Below are positions 1,314-9,779 of a stretch of DNA of 38,734 bases, piece by piece (the stretch's first letter is position 1; every line of letters starts with the position of its first letter). Source of the stretch: an uncultured Anaerolineales bacterium (GTDB lineage Bacteria; Chloroflexota; Anaerolineae; Anaerolineales; UBA11858). The translations under genes and the position numbers were made by a program. The stretch is from the NCBI GenBank assembly GCA_964544065.1, contig CAZJBA010000003.1, positions 1,563 to 40,296 of the forward strand, in the 5' to 3' direction. The notes beneath the pieces are model-generated. The model was not told the origin of the DNA, searched no databases, and saw only the letters and a program-made list of their open reading frames with translations.

Positions 1314-1751
1314 TTACAACAACCCAGACTTACTAATCCTCTCATCCAGGTCAGTCATCCAATTCTCCAGGTTTTCGGGCTCCATCTCTTTGAGCGCGGC
1401 GATCTCAGCGGGGGTGAGTTGAAAACCAGCCTGCTGCAAAGTCGATTCTGGCGCGGCGAAGAAATTGGTTCGAAAATCCTCGTCGCCGATGAGGCGCTTG
1501 ATCACCTCCTGGATACGATCACTGATCGTCGCTTTGGGGCCGGAGAGTTCGGCCATGGCCAGGTTGCGGATGCGGGTGGCCAATCCCGGCGAGGGTTCGG
1601 CCTGGGCGGTGGCGTCCAGTTTGGCGACAGTTTGGAGCAGCGGGGCCAGCTTCCCTGCCTCGGCAGGGTCGATTTGTTCCCCGGCCAAGAGTCGATCGGT
1701 CAGTTCGGCAAATCGTTCCGCTTTTCGGGCTTGATCGTCTTTTTTGGTCAT
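1314..1751 (-). CDS. Hypothetical 145-aa soluble protein at the position where an anti-sigma factor is expected; its C-terminus resembles NHLP/Nif11-type leader peptides
   Basis: ORF track. ATG at 1751 with AGAGG 8 nt upstream, 55 nt downstream of the ECF sigma gene. No hydrophobic segment and no HxxxCxxC motif. The segment DEDFRTNFFAAPESTLQQAGFQLTPAEIAALKEM resembles the D-x-x-FR...P...L...G..L motif of NHLP leaders, recalled from memory. Confidence 0.7.
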   Translation of the reverse strand: MTKKDDQARKAERFAELTDRLLAGEQIDPAEAGKLAPLLQTVAKLDATAQAEPSPGLATRIRNLAMAELSGPKATISDRIQEVIKRLIGDEDFRTNFFAAPESTLQQAGFQLTPAEIAALKEMEPENLENWMTDLDERISKSGLL

Positions 1752-1806: not shown

Positions 1807-2361
1807 TCAGTGAAAAGTAACATCATCTTGCAAGGTCTCGACCTTTTCTTGACAACTCTCGATGGCTCGATAGAAGCGCATCTTGGCGGCAGCGAGACTG
1901 ATATCGAGGTAACCGGCAATCTCTTTGAAGGGGAGGCCATCCGCAATCCGAAGCAGGATGACCTCGCGGTGGCTCTCGGGCAGGGCCCGTAGAGCTTCGC
2001 GGAGGAACATCTGGTCGGCGACGGCGTCAAAGGGGTTTTCCGCTGCCGGTTCGGGGACATCCTCGAGAGGGATCTTTTCGACCGTGCGAGATCGCTTGCG
2101 GTAGAAATCGGCCACCCGGCGTTTGACGATTCGATACACCCATGTAGAGAAGGAGGATCGCCCGCCAAAACTGTCCAGGGAGTGGGCAATCGAGATGAAA
2201 ATCTCCTGGGTGACATCATCGGCCGCATCGCGAGGGACCAGGCTGCAAACCCGTCCGAACACCTTGGGAAAATAATAATCGTAAATTTGACCGAAAGCGG
2301 CCTGTTCTCCCTGTTGAGCCGCTGCGATCAGCGTCTGTTCGTTCTCAAGTTGCCAGGTCAT
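1807..2361 (-). CDS. ECF-type RNA polymerase sigma-70 family factor
   Basis: Region 2 (DAADDVTQEIFISIAHSLDSF...FSTWVYRIVKRRVADFYRK) and region 4 (LPESHREVILLRIADGLPFKEIAGYLDISLAAAKMRFYRA) are recognisable. I prefer ATG 2361 (GGAAGGA 7 nt upstream) over the TTG at 2382. It overlaps the 3' end of the M50 gene by 17 nt. Confidence 0.9.
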   Translation of the reverse strand: MTWQLENEQTLIAAAQQGEQAAFGQIYDYYFPKVFGRVCSLVPRDAADDVTQEIFISIAHSLDSFGGRSSFSTWVYRIVKRRVADFYRKRSRTVEKIPLEDVPEPAAENPFDAVADQMFLREALRALPESHREVILLRIADGLPFKEIAGYLDISLAAAKMRFYRAIESCQEKVETLQDDVTFH

Positions 2362-3853
2362 AAAGATTCCTTCCCAGGGCAAGCAGCGTGGTTCCCACAG
2401 TCAAAGCAGTCCAAATCAGAGCTAGCAGTCCGTAGATTACGTATATTGTATCATCTCGGCGGAATGTTTCACGTTGAGAGAGTTTTTTCCACAGGCCTCG
2501 GCGGATGAATTTGAACGCCCGGCCCCGCAGCATGGGCATCTCCAGCCAGTCCATCAGCAGGTAGTAGCCATCCAGGCGAAGCAAGGGATTGAGGTTGATC
2601 AAAGCGAGCAGCAGATTGACAAACGCAAATTGAAACGCCAGCCCGGCGACCGGTTGGAGCGGGAGAAGCAGCGCGATCAGGCTGGCCAATCCGGCCAGAA
2701 AAAAGCTTGAGTAGGGCCCGGCCCAGGAGACCAGCAGGCGCGGGCGGCGCGGTTCCATCCAGATGTCGGTGGTGTCGACGAAAAAAGCGGGCATGCCCCA
2801 ATAGAACAGAAACCCGGCCCGGCGCACCTCCCGGCCAAAGTGTTTGCAAGTCAGTGCATGAGCGGATTCGTGTAGCAGGATGGCGAAGAATTGACTGACA
2901 TACAACCCCAGCAATCCCATCGACAGGCCACCGATCCCCGCGCTGAGAATCGAAGAACCGCCGTCGAGGAGCAAGATTCCAAAGCCGACCAGTCCGGCCA
3001 GGGCGATCAGGAAGATCAAAATCTGAGCCGGGAGCGTGAAGGCCAGAAAGCCGCCCGCCCGATAGAGGCTGGCGACAAACGAATCGATCCCCTCGAACGA
3101 AAAAGTGGTTTGGCGGAAGGTTTGGAGTAATTTTGCTCCTGCCCGTTTGAACCGGCCTTGGCCCAGGCTTTGGGCCGTGTGCTCGTACAGGTCCCTGTGC
3201 TCGCCAACCAGGAAACCCTTTTCTTGCAATTGCTCCAGAAAAGTGAGCAATTGCTCCACGGCCAGGGATTGGTAGCGGGCAAAATAGGCAACCGCGATAT
3301 CCTCGACGGAGTGCTCGCCGTCCATCAGGTTCCACAGGAAAACCTGCTCCTCGCTGAGGCGCAGATACGTTCCCAGGCGGGTGTTCTTAAGGATGTAATA
3401 CGATTGGCCGCCGCCGGTTGACAGCGGCTTCAGAGCCCAACCCAGGCGGCGGGTGGGCTTGCGTTGAGTCAGGGCACCGGATTGGGCTGCGGCGTGCCAC
3501 AAGCTGCTCTCGGTTGGGGCCAAGACGAGAGTCTCATCATCGAGTTGGTCCCACAGGCCCAGGGCTTGGCGCTGCGGCAACCTCGCCACTTGAAGTGCAT
3601 GCCACAAATCGTGTTCCGGTCGGATGATCAAGGTTTCATCGTTCAGTTCGGCCCAGATGTCGCCCCCTTGCTCGGTGATGACCAGCGTTTCGCCCCCAAC
3701 CTGTTCCCACAAACCGCCGGGACGCTCGCCCAGCGCCGTCCAGAGATGCAGGTCATCGTGATCCAGAACCCGGACCGGCTCCCGAACGACCTGCCGCCAG
3801 ATTCCACCGGCCTCACCCTGGCCGGATACCCGCGCCCAGACGCCTTTGTCCAC
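2345..3853 (-). CDS. M50 (site-2 protease) family membrane metalloprotease with an N-terminal Trp-repeat region and a PqqD/RRE-like domain
   Basis: HExxH (LLHESAHAL, nt 2858-2872). NLNPLLRLDGYY motif in a later TM helix. Several hydrophobic helices. Residues ~150-216 (SYYILKNTRLGTYLRLSEEQVFLWNLMDGEHSVEDIAVAYFARYQSLAVEQLLTFLEQLQEKGFL) look like a PqqD-family domain. GTG start 2 nt after the FHA gene stop. Confidence 0.85.
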   Translation of the reverse strand: MDKGVWARVSGQGEAGGIWRQVVREPVRVLDHDDLHLWTALGERPGGLWEQVGGETLVITEQGGDIWAELNDETLIIRPEHDLWHALQVARLPQRQALGLWDQLDDETLVLAPTESSLWHAAAQSGALTQRKPTRRLGWALKPLSTGGGQSYYILKNTRLGTYLRLSEEQVFLWNLMDGEHSVEDIAVAYFARYQSLAVEQLLTFLEQLQEKGFLVGEHRDLYEHTAQSLGQGRFKRAGAKLLQTFRQTTFSFEGIDSFVASLYRAGGFLAFTLPAQILIFLIALAGLVGFGILLLDGGSSILSAGIGGLSMGLLGLYVSQFFAILLHESAHALTCKHFGREVRRAGFLFYWGMPAFFVDTTDIWMEPRRPRLLVSWAGPYSSFFLAGLASLIALLLPLQPVAGLAFQFAFVNLLLALINLNPLLRLDGYYLLMDWLEMPMLRGRAFKFIRRGLWKKLSQRETFRRDDTIYVIYGLLALIWTALTVGTTLLALGRNLYDLAT

Positions 3854-3855
3854 GC

Positions 3856-4527
3856 TCAGTCCCTACCCTGGCAAAAGACCAAAACACCATGGCCGAAAAC
3901 GAGTTCGTCGCCGTCGGTCAGCTTGTGCGTCACACTGAGTCGCTCCCCGTTGACGAGGGTGCCGTTGGCGCTGCCCAGATCGCTGAGCAGATAGCCCTTC
4001 CCTTGGCGGACGATCTCGGCATGGGGGCGGGAAACAGCCCGGTCTTGCAGGTTGATGTCCCACTTGTCGCCGCGTCCGGCCCGCCCGACGACCGTTTTCG
4101 CCTTGACCAGATCGAAGCGCGTGCCCCGGCCTGGCCCTGTGCGGATTTCCAGATACGGATGGGCGGCCAGATTGGGGACGATTTTTGTGGGACGGGATTC
4201 CGCCGGGGGCGCGGAGTCCTCTTCCGAGGGAGTCTGAACCTCGAAGCGGATGGTCACCGGCCCGATTTGAAGTTGATCCCCCTGGTGAAGCGGGCGCGTG
4301 CTCTCCAGCCGTTCGCCGTTGAGCAGGGTGCCGTTGTAGCTGCCCAAATCCGAAATTAGAAACGCGTCCCCGTCAAAATAGATCTCCGCATGTTGGCGGG
4401 AGACGCGCTCATCGAGAATGGTGATGTCACAATCCCTGCTCCGCCCAATCACAAAGAGGTCTTTTTCGAGGGAAAGACGATGTTCCTGGCCAGGCGGAAA
4501 TTGCCAGTGGAGGTGAGCGGCTGGCAT
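3856..4527 (-). CDS. Tandem FHA-domain protein (two forkhead-associated domains)
   Basis: Two copies of the FHA signature: FVIGRSRDCDITILDERVSRQHAEIYFDGDAFLISDLGSYNGTLLNGERL and VVGRAGRGDKWDINLQDRAVSRPHAEIVRQGKGYLLSDLGSANGTLVNGERL. The ATG at 4527 overlaps the TGA of the upstream gene (TGATG). Confidence 0.9.
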   Translation of the reverse strand: MPAAHLHWQFPPGQEHRLSLEKDLFVIGRSRDCDITILDERVSRQHAEIYFDGDAFLISDLGSYNGTLLNGERLESTRPLHQGDQLQIGPVTIRFEVQTPSEEDSAPPAESRPTKIVPNLAAHPYLEIRTGPGRGTRFDLVKAKTVVGRAGRGDKWDINLQDRAVSRPHAEIVRQGKGYLLSDLGSANGTLVNGERLSVTHKLTDGDELVFGHGVLVFCQGRD

Positions 4528-6589: not shown

Positions 6590-8266
6590 CTAATTGAAAT
6601 CTGGTCTGTGGCCGGAGCTTTTTCCATTCTGGGCTTGTTCGTGATAGATGCTTAACCACTCCGCCATTTGATCGCGTTCCCTTTGAGCTTTTTGTTCTTC
6701 GACGGTTTGCTGGCGACTTTGAAAACGTTGGAACACTTCTTGTTGTACCATGGTGGGATTGTACACATTGTCGAAGGTGAATTCTGCTTCACCGACATTA
6801 ATCAACACGGTGCCGTAGTTGAGCAGCTTTTGGATAAAATTTTGTTCAACGCTGGTGTTGAGCACCCGTTCCAGAGGCGCCGATTGTGTCCTTTCCCTGC
6901 CGAGCGGTTTGCGGTCGATATCAAAAATCTTCTTATCGGTGACTTTGTAAATATCGTTACTCCAGTCTATCAGATGGTAAAGCCACCAAGGCGACGAAAG
7001 CAGCAGGAAGATTCCCATAGCGGCGAGGGGCATAAGGGCTTTCTGGAGCGGATTTTCTCCAGATGCATAAGCCAATCCCACTTGCAAGACGAGATAGCCG
7101 GACAATCCCAAGAAGATCACAACAATGAGCCAGATTTCTCGCAACAAGATAAACCAATGTTTACGGTAGATTACGTCTCCTTCTTCTTCGATATGAGTTT
7201 TGAGCAAGTTGGAAAACCATTTGGTCAACTTGGAATTCTTTTTTGTAGGTTGGCTTGAGTCCTTGCTTTGCTGTTCAACTTCTGGGGGTTGTTGAAGGCC
7301 AATTACGGTGCGAATCGTCTCGACTCGTTTTTGATGAGCTTCTTCCTCAGCATATAGCTCTAAGCGCTGCCAGTACGCGTTGATCATGGCTTTAAACTGT
7401 TCAGGCCTATCGACGTTTTCCATCACAATGTCCCCCTTGAGCGTTCTAACAACGACATCGGCCGACTTCCAAAGCTTTTGAATATAATCCTTGTTGGTGT
7501 CGATGGATATAATTGCGTTCAGAGGAGCTTCGTTGCGACTCTCGAATAGCATAACAATTTTTTCCAACCAGATCACCCGTTTGTTGGTGACAATATAAAA
7601 GTCGTTGCCCCAATCAACCCATTTCCAGATGGCCCAAAAGATGGAAGGGACAGCGATGAGCAAGCCAATCACCTTGAGGAGAATTCCACCGATTTTTCCT
7701 GGGGATGCTGCCAAGAACCCAGAAGCCACGAAGATAGCCCCAATGGCGAAAAGTGTAAGGCTTGGCAGCAGGGAAGATAGCAAGACATAGATATGTTTTT
7801 GTGCAATCATGTGGATGATTTCCCCCTCCTCCATCCAATTGAATTGTTCCTTTCTGGCAATCCGGTAGCTTCGGGCCAAGATTTGTAGATCGTCTTCTAT
7901 TTCCGGGAAATCCAGGAGCATATGCTGGAAATTCTTTTTTTCTAAGACGAGTGCTTTCGCCCCTCCTCGACATACCCCTGTTATTTTGTGCTTATGGTTG
8001 TATAAGAGGCTTTCGTGTCCTAAAATATCCCCTCTTATCAACGTGCCCACATATCTTTTTTCCCGCCCACGGCCGCGCTCTAGCTGGACTTGACCAGATG
8101 TGATAACATAAAAGTGTTCTGCTGAAGTGTCTTCTGAGCAAAGGACTTGTTTATCAACAAACGTTTTAACCTCGAAAAGTTTGGCGAGATCACAACGCTC
8201 GTTTTCGTCGAGGTCTCTAAAATGCGGAATCGTATCGAGATAATTGGCAATTTGATTGACGTCCAT
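6590..8266 (-). CDS. Membrane protein with an N-terminal cyclic-nucleotide-binding domain and two YdbT-like bacterial PH (bPH_2) modules
   Basis: cNMP-binding-like N-terminus (FRDLDENERCDLAKLFEVKTF...GDILGHESLL...AKALVLEKKNF). Two repeats of a TM hairpin followed by W.DW.ND.Y.VT.KR/K.I (WVDWGNDFYIVTNKRVIWLE and LIDWSNDIYKVTDKKIFDID). Confidence 0.8.
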   Translation of the reverse strand: MDVNQIANYLDTIPHFRDLDENERCDLAKLFEVKTFVDKQVLCSEDTSAEHFYVITSGQVQLERGRGREKRYVGTLIRGDILGHESLLYNHKHKITGVCRGGAKALVLEKKNFQHMLLDFPEIEDDLQILARSYRIARKEQFNWMEEGEIIHMIAQKHIYVLLSSLLPSLTLFAIGAIFVASGFLAASPGKIGGILLKVIGLLIAVPSIFWAIWKWVDWGNDFYIVTNKRVIWLEKIVMLFESRNEAPLNAIISIDTNKDYIQKLWKSADVVVRTLKGDIVMENVDRPEQFKAMINAYWQRLELYAEEEAHQKRVETIRTVIGLQQPPEVEQQSKDSSQPTKKNSKLTKWFSNLLKTHIEEEGDVIYRKHWFILLREIWLIVVIFLGLSGYLVLQVGLAYASGENPLQKALMPLAAMGIFLLLSSPWWLYHLIDWSNDIYKVTDKKIFDIDRKPLGRERTQSAPLERVLNTSVEQNFIQKLLNYGTVLINVGEAEFTFDNVYNPTMVQQEVFQRFQSRQQTVEEQKAQRERDQMAEWLSIYHEQAQNGKSSGHRPDFN

Positions 8267-8318
8267 GAACTCATTTTAACATAAATTTACAGCAAGACTC
8301 AAGATAGGAGTATAAAAT

Positions 8319-9779
8319 ATGCCCATAAATTTTGGAACAGACGGTTGGCGTGCGGTTATTTCGGATACCTTTACGTTTCATAATTTACGTCTGGTCGTTC
8401 AGGCCATTGCTGATGCTATCAATTCGGGAGACTGGCAAGTGGACAAATCTACTCGCCGCAGCATTGACCCTAGAAAGGTTGTGGTCGGCTTTGACACCCG
8501 CTTTCTTTCGGATCGCTATGCCGCCGACGCGGCCCGAGTTCTGGCGGCCAATGGATACACGGTCTTTTTAGCCCAAGCGGATGCACCTAGCCCAGCCATT
8601 TCGTACGCTGTGCGTCATTTGGGTGCCATTGCCGGTCTAGTGATTACGGCCTCCCACAACGCGCCGCGCTACAATGGCATCAAGCTCAAGGCTGCCTACG
8701 GCGGATCAGCGCTACCGGAGCAATGTCACCGTGTCGAGATTTACTTGAATGATAACGAAGAGCGCGGCCGTGGTCCCAACATGATGGATTGGAGACAAGC
8801 GCGCAAATTAGGCATGATCGAACGTTTCAACCCGATTCCGGCGTATTATGATCACCTGCGTACCTTAATCGACTTTGACAAGATTGCTGAGAATCCCCCT
8901 CGTGTGATCGTTGATTCCATGCATGGATCGGGGCGCGAGATTATCAAAGGTATTTTAAAGGGGACCGGCTGCGAGGTTCATGAAATCCGTGGCGAGATGA
9001 ATCCTGGTTTTGGCGGCACCCACCCTGAGCCGATCGAGAGCCATTTGGGCGCCTTAGCTGGCGCTATCAGTACTGGCATAGGCGATCTAGGCTTGGCCAG
9101 TGATGGCGATGGCGACCGCATTGGCGCCATGGATGGGCGCGGTAATTTTGTCGATCCACACAAAATCATGGCTCTGGCGCTGCGCTATCTGGTGGAAGAG
9201 CGCGATTGGCGCGGGCCGGTTGTGCGCACTGTCTCCACAACACGCATGATCGATCGTTTGGCAGCAAAATATGGTTTGCCGGTCTATGAAACCCCCGTGG
9301 GTTTCAATTACATCGCTGATCATATGCTCAAAGAAGACATTTTGATTGGCGGCGAAGAATCAGGCGGGATTTCCTTCCGCGGCAACATCCCTGAGGGAGA
9401 TGGTTCTCTGATGGGATTACTGTTGATCGAAATGGTTGCCTCCTCTGGTACTTCGTTGTTTGATTTGGTTCAAGATTTGCTCAATGATGTCGGGCCTGCC
9501 TTCTACGAGCGCGACGATTTACGCCTGAGCCATCCCGTGGCCAAAGATCGGATGGTCCAATTGCTGCTTGAGGAGGCCCCCGAGCGGATTGGCGGTGAAT
9601 CGATCGAAGACATGCTTTCCGTCGATGGGGTCAAATATATCATGGGGGATGACTCCTGGTTGTTGATTCGCCCCTCGGGGACGGAGCCGGTCTTGCGCGT
9701 CTACGCCGAAGGCCGCACCCCAGAGATGGTTGATTCGTTATTGTCCTACGGTAGGGATGTCGCCGTCAACGTGACTTAG
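8319..9779 (+). CDS. Alpha-D-phosphohexomutase family enzyme (phosphoglucomutase/phosphomannomutase)
   Basis: Active-site loop ITASHNAPRYNGIK. Metal loop ASDGDGDRIG. GGEESGG sugar-binding loop. AGGAG 8 nt upstream of the ATG. Confidence 0.9.
   Translation: MPINFGTDGWRAVISDTFTFHNLRLVVQAIADAINSGDWQVDKSTRRSIDPRKVVVGFDTRFLSDRYAADAARVLAANGYTVFLAQADAPSPAISYAVRHLGAIAGLVITASHNAPRYNGIKLKAAYGGSALPEQCHRVEIYLNDNEERGRGPNMMDWRQARKLGMIERFNPIPAYYDHLRTLIDFDKIAENPPRVIVDSMHGSGREIIKGILKGTGCEVHEIRGEMNPGFGGTHPEPIESHLGALAGAISTGIGDLGLASDGDGDRIGAMDGRGNFVDPHKIMALALRYLVEERDWRGPVVRTVSTTRMIDRLAAKYGLPVYETPVGFNYIADHMLKEDILIGGEESGGISFRGNIPEGDGSLMGLLLIEMVASSGTSLFDLVQDLLNDVGPAFYERDDLRLSHPVAKDRMVQLLLEEAPERIGGESIEDMLSVDGVKYIMGDDSWLLIRPSGTEPVLRVYAEGRTPEMVDSLLSYGRDVAVNVT

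Follow-up and report, generated by a model that had tools for sequence, protein, structure and literature searches.

How might an intramembrane protease be placed under the control of threonine phosphorylation? The question arises from two adjoining genes in a 38,734-nucleotide stretch of DNA from an uncultured Anaerolineales bacterium (Chloroflexota; contig CAZJBA010000003.1, assembly GCA_964544065.1), referred to here as the window. One gene encodes a site-2-type (M50) intramembrane metalloprotease fused to a PqqD-like recognition element (RRE) for ribosomally synthesized and posttranslationally modified peptides (RiPPs); the other, immediately upstream, encodes a tandem-FHA protein. An earlier note on this DNA had singled out a Trp repeat and three E-T-L-[VI]-[IL] segments in the N-terminal tail of the protease, and had read the segments as phosphothreonine (pThr) docking sites for the FHA protein. 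Comparative genomics and structure prediction support that interpretation by inference. We hold, with moderate confidence, that T56, T74, and T108 are phosphorylated by a Hanks-type kinase and dock the tandem-FHA protein, which would regulate substrate access to the protease or its clustering.

A threonine motif in the protease tail

The hydrophobic–Trp dipeptides of the tail (VW6, IW19, LW38, LW49, IW67, LW84, LW101, and LW119) and the segments GGETLVI, NDETLII, and DDETLVL lie where the earlier note had placed them, down to the nucleotide coordinates of the threonine codons. Its Trp period of 17 to 18 residues also holds from W49 to W119 (steps of 18, 17, 17, and 18). Each full motif has its Trp exactly seven residues N-terminal of the Thr; Trp repeat and ETL segments therefore constitute one unit of 11 to 13 residues. 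With two flanking positions at its end, the consensus reads [GD]-h-W-x-[EQD]-[AVL]-x-[DE]-E-T-L-h-h-x-[RP] (h, aliphatic).

This unit is strongly conserved in number and in sequence. A search of a 5.8-billion-protein collection found 386 homologues; among the best 120 of the 386 (38–100% identity), 117 could be anchored, and 100 of these carry exactly three W-x6-T-h-h-h copies. In an unbiased alignment of 70 orthologues (38–84% identity), to which the residue counts below refer, W19, G47, W49, T56, W67, W101, and T108 are fully conserved, and the three threonines, the Trp residues, and the Glu at −1 rank highest within the first 130 residues. Aliphatic residues as a class fill positions +1 to +3, with L, I, V, or M at +3 in ~63, 66, and 68 of the 70 sequences for the three motifs. 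The half motifs, which lack the ETL extension, are kept as well (W38 in 69/70, W84 in 68/69, and Trp or Phe at position 119). Between the motifs, by contrast with these fixed islands, spacers are essentially unconstrained in length and sequence. Ser takes the place of the motif Thr in 1 of 355 motif instances.

The three-copy pattern is beyond chance, as the earlier note had judged. The strict form W-x4-[DEGNK]-E-T-h-h-h occurs three times in the protease open reading frame (ORF) and nowhere else among the six-frame ORFs of the 3.1-Mb genome; 0.8 matches are expected per 3.13 million shuffled residues. No DNA-level direct repeats occur within positions 3440–3860, so the repeat is old and has been maintained at the protein level, and a recent duplication or an assembly artefact is ruled out as its source. 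A single-sequence search with the tail in 151 genomes of the class gave two matches, the method being too insensitive.

Structure prediction points to a disordered tail, as suits short linear motifs. In an AlphaFold2 (AF2) model of the protease built on the 70-sequence alignment, the predicted local distance difference test score (pLDDT) stays below 50 at residues 1–81 and 90–115 (block means 33–42), compared with 83–89 in the RRE and 85–97 in the membrane core. The tail forms only one-turn helices, mostly at Trp residues; the model shows no strands or fold at the ETL segments or elsewhere in residues 1–115, which makes a folded repeat domain there unlikely, and no docking of the tail onto the RRE.

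The same model bears on whether the repeats could be a structural element—strands that fold on oligomerization or membrane binding—with no part in signaling and with the FHA linkage merely inherited. The three aliphatic residues after each Thr do resemble β-strand segments, and low pLDDT is no proof of disorder. However, the alignment that folds the rest of the protein yields neither strand nor fold in residues 1–115, and the spacers are free to vary. We regard this explanation as improbable, on these grounds and on those of gene linkage given below.

The charge distribution of the membrane core places the tail on the cytoplasmic side. The loop between transmembrane helices 1 and 2 (TM1 and TM2) contains no Lys or Arg, whereas the loops after TM2 and TM4 contain 7 and 10; the charged loops share the side of the N-terminus, and the tail would therefore be cytoplasmic, beside the RRE. 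From hydropathy, the positive-inside rule, and the topology of site-2 proteases (S2P) and RREs, the N-terminal 264 residues, tail included, are predicted to be cytoplasmic. The docking interpretation, against which an extracytoplasmic tail would have counted, stands on that point. Such a location also suits the RRE, which has to encounter ribosomal peptides. Conserved islands of 11 residues, set in cytoplasmic sequence that is otherwise variable and unstructured, are what characterizes short linear motifs.

Linkage of the motif to the tandem-FHA gene

A locus scan with one genome per prokaryotic species returned 80 related loci (L numbers below). E-T-h-h-h marks 25 of them and is missing from the other 55, and the 25 motif loci form a single clade inside Chloroflexota (support 86/97). 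In 24 of these motif loci, the tandem-FHA gene lies immediately upstream of the protease; no such gene occurs near the 55 motif-free loci. The remaining motif locus, L010, has an orthologous Zn-ribbon–FHA–FHA pair on another contig (FHA–FHA, 279 bits). Ten genomes with motif-free relatives contained no orthologue-level FHA–FHA protein, the best match reaching 147 bits. Only the genes for a small Zn-ribbon protein, the FHA–FHA protein, and the protease are kept across all 25 motif loci, and the FHA gene adjacency is maintained over path lengths of more than 1.5 substitutions per site. In the window, the GTG start of the protease lies 2 nt past the stop codon of the FHA gene.

In one genome (L010, 1–550, and L090), the protease is split from the Zn-ribbon–FHA–FHA genes, and a foreign-looking ORF of 33% GC precedes it; an insertion may account for the split, or else a break in assembly or binning. 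At L089, the protease itself is altered: the protein at 8001–9650 (P0079) reads HKSAH, the catalytic Glu having been lost, and retains the three Thr motifs, the Zn-ribbon gene, and the FHA–FHA gene. It may be a pseudo-protease kept as a scaffold or regulator.

For a purely structural role of the repeats with an inherited FHA linkage, the origin of the clade in a single event is a favorable point. Set against it are the adjacency of the two genes over more than 1.5 substitutions per site and the retention of both where the operon is split, and equally where the catalytic Glu is gone.

The history of the motif can be traced in part. One or two half motifs, h-W-x-x-h, stand ahead of the RRE in 43 of the 55 FHA-less relatives; the Trp element is accordingly ancestral, and the innovation tied to FHA consists of the ETL extension and its multiplication. 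The Trp repeat of the earlier note is thus real but in part ancestral. The long FHA-less, motif-free relatives that were tested (730–1150 aa) carry C-terminal tandem domains for binding cyclic nucleoside monophosphates (cNMP). The pThr/FHA module would be the regulatory input of the motif clade and cNMP-binding domains that of the long sister lineages, which suggests interchangeable regulatory inputs on one protease core.

Both domains of the FHA protein have canonical pThr pockets. Pfam FHA (PF00498) matches in two stretches (148.7 bits, cut-off 20.7; E 6e-44), in agreement with the earlier count of exactly two domains, and AF2 models both with pLDDT >90. Among 27 orthologues, the invariant residues are G28, R29, S43, R44, N65, and G66 in FHA1 and G148, R149, S166, R167, N188, G189, and T190 (the Thr of NGT) in FHA2; H46 and H169 are at least 90% conserved. 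Each domain shows the signature of pThr-binding FHA domains (G-R, S-x-x-H, N-G-[TS]). The nearest relatives of both in the PDB are GarA, OdhI, and FhaA (E 9e-12 to 3e-9). The FHA domains of GarA (Rv1827) and FhaA (Rv0020c) are reported to select hydrophobic residues at pT+3 (PMC3138270), in line with the aliphatic +3 preference invoked in the earlier note. The protein is not an orthologue of OdhI, scoring 121 bits against NCBIfam OdhI NF041660 (cut-off 200).

The linker between the two domains carries a Thr motif of its own, in a segment (residues 105–119) where pLDDT falls below 50. T114 is invariant among the 27 orthologues, conservation of V117 and P118 reaches at least 90%, and the core of the linker consensus, T-L-h-h, is that of the protease motifs. 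By analogy with GarA and OdhI, T114 may serve as an intramolecular competitor or autoinhibitory phosphosite.

Proposed phosphorylation, motif partners, and the RiPP setting

The window contains no kinase gene. The earlier note had suggested looking for Hanks-type kinases elsewhere in the genome; the genome encodes seven, together with nine FHA domains and two PP2C phosphatases. Kinase genes adjoin the module at L008, L085, and L025 (Table 1), and none was found beside the 55 motif-free loci. No orthologue of the L008/L085 kinase–FHA fusion is evident in the genome of the window; the best candidate, the C25 kinase, matches in the kinase domain only. Hanks kinases of Mycobacterium tuberculosis are reported to prefer Thr acceptors with hydrophobic residues at +3 and +5 (PMC3138270).

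On this evidence, threonine phosphorylation probably acts as a switch on the protease. A Hanks-type Ser/Thr kinase would phosphorylate the tail threonines, and the resulting pT-L-h-h motifs, aliphatic at +3, would be bound by the two FHA domains of the upstream-encoded protein, as comparative genomics suggests. Three sites and a bivalent reader would give avidity. Binding would probably alter the access of leader substrates of the NHLP/Os1348 type to the RRE and active site, or cluster the protease, with an activating or an inhibiting effect. More speculatively, T-L-h-V-P in the FHA linker could compete as an intramolecular site, as in GarA and OdhI.

Several observations weigh against this reading. 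FHA ligands typically need only the pT and the +3 residue, and yet +1, +2, the Glu at −1, and the Trp at −7 are at least as conserved as the FHA-ligand positions. The earlier note had proposed, as a check, that the Thr and the aliphatic +3 residue should be the most conserved positions: this holds for the Thr (70/70, 68/70, and 70/70), whereas +3, though aliphatic, is conserved no better than +1 and +2. The additional conservation at −7, −1, +1, and +2 means that the motif probably serves a second partner—kinase, RRE, or membrane—and suggests the kinase as the simplest candidate. With acidic residues at −1 and −2, an interaction that does not depend on phosphorylation is conceivable. No kinase is conserved in the module, one adjoining it in only 3 of ~28 loci. 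Finally, the clade that combines the repeat with the FHA gene has one origin, so the co-occurrence represents one gain and long joint retention, not many independent events or convergence.

A rival reading is a different arrangement within the same module, in which the tail motifs are not direct FHA ligands. They might instead bind the membrane, the RRE or substrate, the Zn-ribbon protein, or the kinase, and the FHA protein would dock on another phosphosite, such as the kinase or T114 in its own linker; alternatively, the FHA protein would bind the tail independently of phosphorylation, with help from the acidic D-E pair ahead of the Thr. Conservation of Trp −7, Glu −1, and three aliphatic residues exceeds what an FHA domain needs, an invariant Thr motif is also present in the FHA linker, and the L008 and L085 kinases carry FHA domains themselves, making other nodes of a phospho-network possible. 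On the other side, a hydrophobic or β-strand contact would tolerate Ser, Val, or Ile, and the Thr is virtually never exchanged (Ser in 1/355). The Zn-ribbon protein accompanies relatives with and without the motif and so gives no account of a clade-specific motif, the tail is not docked on the RRE in the AF2 model, and both FHA domains keep invariant pThr pockets. We judge this arrangement unlikely, though deserving of serious attention.

What a phospho-docking switch would act on depends on the protease. Its M50 core falls slightly below the Pfam Peptidase_M50 cut-off (24.8 bits, cut-off 27.2) and has the hallmarks of S2P proteases: HExxH in TM2, at the cytoplasmic end of this helix; NxxPxxxxDG in a helix farther along, with N420, L421, N422, P423, L424, D428, and G429 invariant in the 70-sequence alignment; and the S2P fold. 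The best Foldseek matches of the model are SpoIVFB (8vjl; prob 1.0, E 0.015) and the lasso-peptide RRE TbiB1 (5v1u). Pfam PqqD (PF05402) spans residues 154–215 (29.3 bits, cut-off 23.4), and the RRE is modeled as a three-stranded sheet with helices of the winged-helix type, similar to leader-bound lasso B1 proteins including TbiB1 (Foldseek TM-score 0.62–0.68). Among NCBIfam families, the best match is daptide_HExxH NF041824 (MpaP), at 163 bits (cut-off 300; E 1e-47). That match starts at residue 156, leaving the 137-residue tail uncovered, and the window has no daptide-specific genes; by sequence, the protease is related to the daptide intramembrane metalloprotease MpaP but not a member of its family.

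In other members, the module sits within clear RiPP clusters. At L087, the order is Zn-ribbon, FHA–FHA, protease, extracytoplasmic function (ECF) sigma factor, a 150-aa Os1348 protein, and M16 peptidase, after which come seven Frankia_peptide precursors and one LanM-like gene (DUF4135 + LANC_like). L085 reads kinase–FHA, Zn-ribbon, FHA–FHA, protease, radical SAM, precursor, and YcaO, and L089 has Frankia_peptide precursors and B12-radical-SAM genes around the module. This context makes the protease most likely, by analogy with MpaP in daptide maturation, an RRE-dependent leader peptidase.

The window offers a candidate partner of its own. Next to the ECF sigma gene, it encodes a soluble 145-aa protein that ends in an Os1348/NHLP-clan leader-like domain and is likely a substrate or ligand of the RRE-protease. 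The leader-like domains of the Os1348/Frankia_peptide proteins (window; L005–L007, L030, L065, and L087) end in a conserved L-D-E-R-[IL]-S-K. The short precursors continue from there into core peptides, and the 145- to 150-aa form beside the ECF sigma gene is extended at its N-terminus and has hardly any core (SGLL), as would suit an anti-sigma-like protein that bears a leader. The protease may act on this protein as well. A wider scheme can be drawn: a kinase, three Thr sites, and FHA-gated leader recognition and cleavage would form a phospho-switch on RiPP maturation and sigma signaling, with cleavage of the Os1348 anti-sigma-like protein and release of the ECF sigma factor added in the subclade of the window. 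We offer this extension tentatively and consider it less probable than phospho-docking itself.

The Os1348 protein also invites the thought that the tail is a pseudo-substrate, its motifs mimicking the L-D-E-R-I-S-K leader end and occupying the RRE or active site until they are phosphorylated and drawn off by the FHA protein. Leader peptides attach to RRE domains as an extra β-strand, leader-bound lasso RREs are the fold matches of this RRE, and the Os1348 protein of the window's subclade ends in W-x4-D-E-R-I, with Trp −7, Asp −2, Glu −1, and an aliphatic +1 in common with the motif. Such a role is nonetheless very doubtful: a matrix built from 340 motif instances scores Os1348 proteins at chance (per-window p 1e-3 to 1e-2, with ~100 windows each), the Trp is not kept in other members of the Os1348 family, and in the AF2 model the tail does not dock on the RRE.

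The Zn-ribbon gene is a neighbor of the protease gene whether or not a locus has the repeat, with orthologues in 60 loci; in one arrangement it lies upstream of the FHA gene, and in the second it follows the long protease on the downstream side. The conserved C-terminus of the protein reads P-E-P-[IL]-E-M-P-[YE]-L-D. In the window, it reads P-L-E-T-P-Y-L-D, and we rejected it as a fourth Thr site because the Thr is Met in most orthologues. An M16 peptidase gene is a further neighbor on the protease strand, in a region interrupted by a run of N at ~1460–1560 of the contig (C3), just past the low end of the window. At this place downstream of the cassette, L087 has its precursors and LanM-like gene.

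Table 1. Coordinates of the module, its neighbors, and related genes at other loci
Feature	Position (nt)	Strand	Basis or remark
RRE-fused M50 (site-2-type) intramembrane metalloprotease, 502 aa	2345..3853	minus	Pfam, NCBIfam, Foldseek
N-terminal tail, residues 1–137, with all Trp and ETL motifs	3443..3853	minus	AF2, alignment; pI 5.0
Motif 1, WEQVGGETLVI (W49–I59), candidate phospho-acceptor T56 (nt 3686–3688)	3677..3709	minus	W49 70/70, E55 69/70, T56 70/70
Motif 2, WAELNDETLII (W67–I77), candidate phospho-acceptor T74 (nt 3632–3634)	3623..3655	minus	W67 70/70, E73 63/70, T74 68/70
Motif 3, WDQLDDETLVL (W101–L111), candidate phospho-acceptor T108 (nt 3530–3532)	3521..3553	minus	W101 70/70, E107 66/70, T108 70/70
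Span of four half motifs h-W-x-x-h without ETL (W19, W38, W84, W119)	3497..3799	minus	alignment
PqqD-like RRE, residues ~139–215	3209..3439	minus	Pfam PF05402, AF2, Foldseek
HESAH zinc-binding/catalytic motif, residues 328–332	2858..2872	minus	H328, E329, H332 invariant in 70-sequence alignment
NLNPLLRLDG, residues 420–429, with third zinc ligand of S2P proteases	2567..2596	minus	alignment
Tandem-FHA protein, 223 aa; FHA1 ~residues 4–97, FHA2 ~125–219	3856..4527	minus	Pfam, AF2, alignment
Inter-FHA linker motif T114-K-I-V-P, residues 114–118	4174..4188	minus	consensus G-T-L-[IV]-V-P
Small Cys-rich Zn-ribbon protein (DUF2180-like), ~70 aa	4527..4742	minus	Pfam DUF2180 22.3 bits, cut-off 22.2
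ECF sigma factor, start overlaps M50 3′ end	1807..2361	minus	Sigma70_r2, r4_2; TIGR02937 85 bits
Soluble 145-aa protein, C-terminal Os1348/NHLP-clan (Frankia_peptide) leader-like domain	1314..1751	minus	NF038399 69.4 bits, cut-off 40
Kinase–FHA fusions (C-terminal FHA), other loci	L008 3583–4914; L085 5613–6932		directly upstream of module, same strand
Hanks kinase, 936 aa, other locus	L025 2027–4834		divergently adjacent to module
Long relatives with cNMP-binding domains, other loci	L059 5833–9138; L034 5722–9087; L056 5914–8109		

Relation to known regulatory systems

Known controls on site-2 proteases are PDZ or CBS domains, inhibitor proteins, and an earlier cleavage at site 1, and to our knowledge RiPP leader peptidases are generally regarded as unregulated tailoring enzymes. 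The literature searched yielded no FHA partner and no phospho-regulation for RiPP proteases, site-2 or other intramembrane proteases, or PqqD proteins. pThr–FHA docking, multisite FHA systems such as Rv1747 and GarA, and RRE-fused M50 leader peptidases are already known; measured against that literature, the pairing of a phosphorylatable tail with its own FHA reader, on a protease of the site-2 type or of RiPP pathways, appears to be new. If the phospho-docking reading is correct, the protease would be the first of the intramembrane kind, and the first among RiPP leader peptidases, to be controlled by pThr–FHA docking, and Hanks-kinase signaling would enter both fields. The module would also provide a compact model of multivalent pThr–FHA recognition, in which two readers face three near-identical sites and, possibly, a competing site in the linker. 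The protease family shows a modular exchange of regulatory inputs, cNMP-binding domains against pThr/FHA, and [GD]-h-W-x-E-h-x-D-E-T-L-h-h is a ready search pattern for such clusters in Chloroflexota.

On the protease side, the closest parallels combine a PqqD-like RRE with an M50 core, as here. They include the RiPP M50 proteases of the YydH/LiaK type and MpaP, an RRE-dependent intramembrane peptidase that removes leader peptides in daptide biosynthesis (bioRxiv 10.1101/2023.03.08.531785). Relatives of the window protease occur in clusters with Frankia_peptide precursors and LanM, radical SAM, and YcaO genes. SpoIVFB with its CBS domain and RseP with its PDZ domains likewise exemplify an M50 core that depends on a soluble regulatory module, as proposed here; unlike those accessory domains, the module here would be a phosphorylatable tail with a separate FHA reader.

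On the reader side, GarA, OdhI, and FhaA are the closest solved relatives, and they share the canonical pThr pockets of the FHA protein described here. In GarA and OdhI, an E-T-T-S phospho-motif in a disordered N-terminal segment binds the protein's own FHA domain, a role that the linker T-L-h-V-P could play here. In contrast to the single FHA domain of GarA and OdhI, the window protein has two, and its candidate ligand is the tail of a membrane protease rather than a metabolic enzyme. The same multivalent logic is found in Rv1747, an ABC transporter of M. tuberculosis that has a pair of FHA domains and, in a disordered segment, several pThr sites phosphorylated by the Hanks kinase PknF and hydrophobic at +3 (PMC3138270). 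In Rv1747, FHA domains and sites lie in one polypeptide and the output is a transporter; in the module described here, they lie in separate proteins, and the output would be an intramembrane protease.

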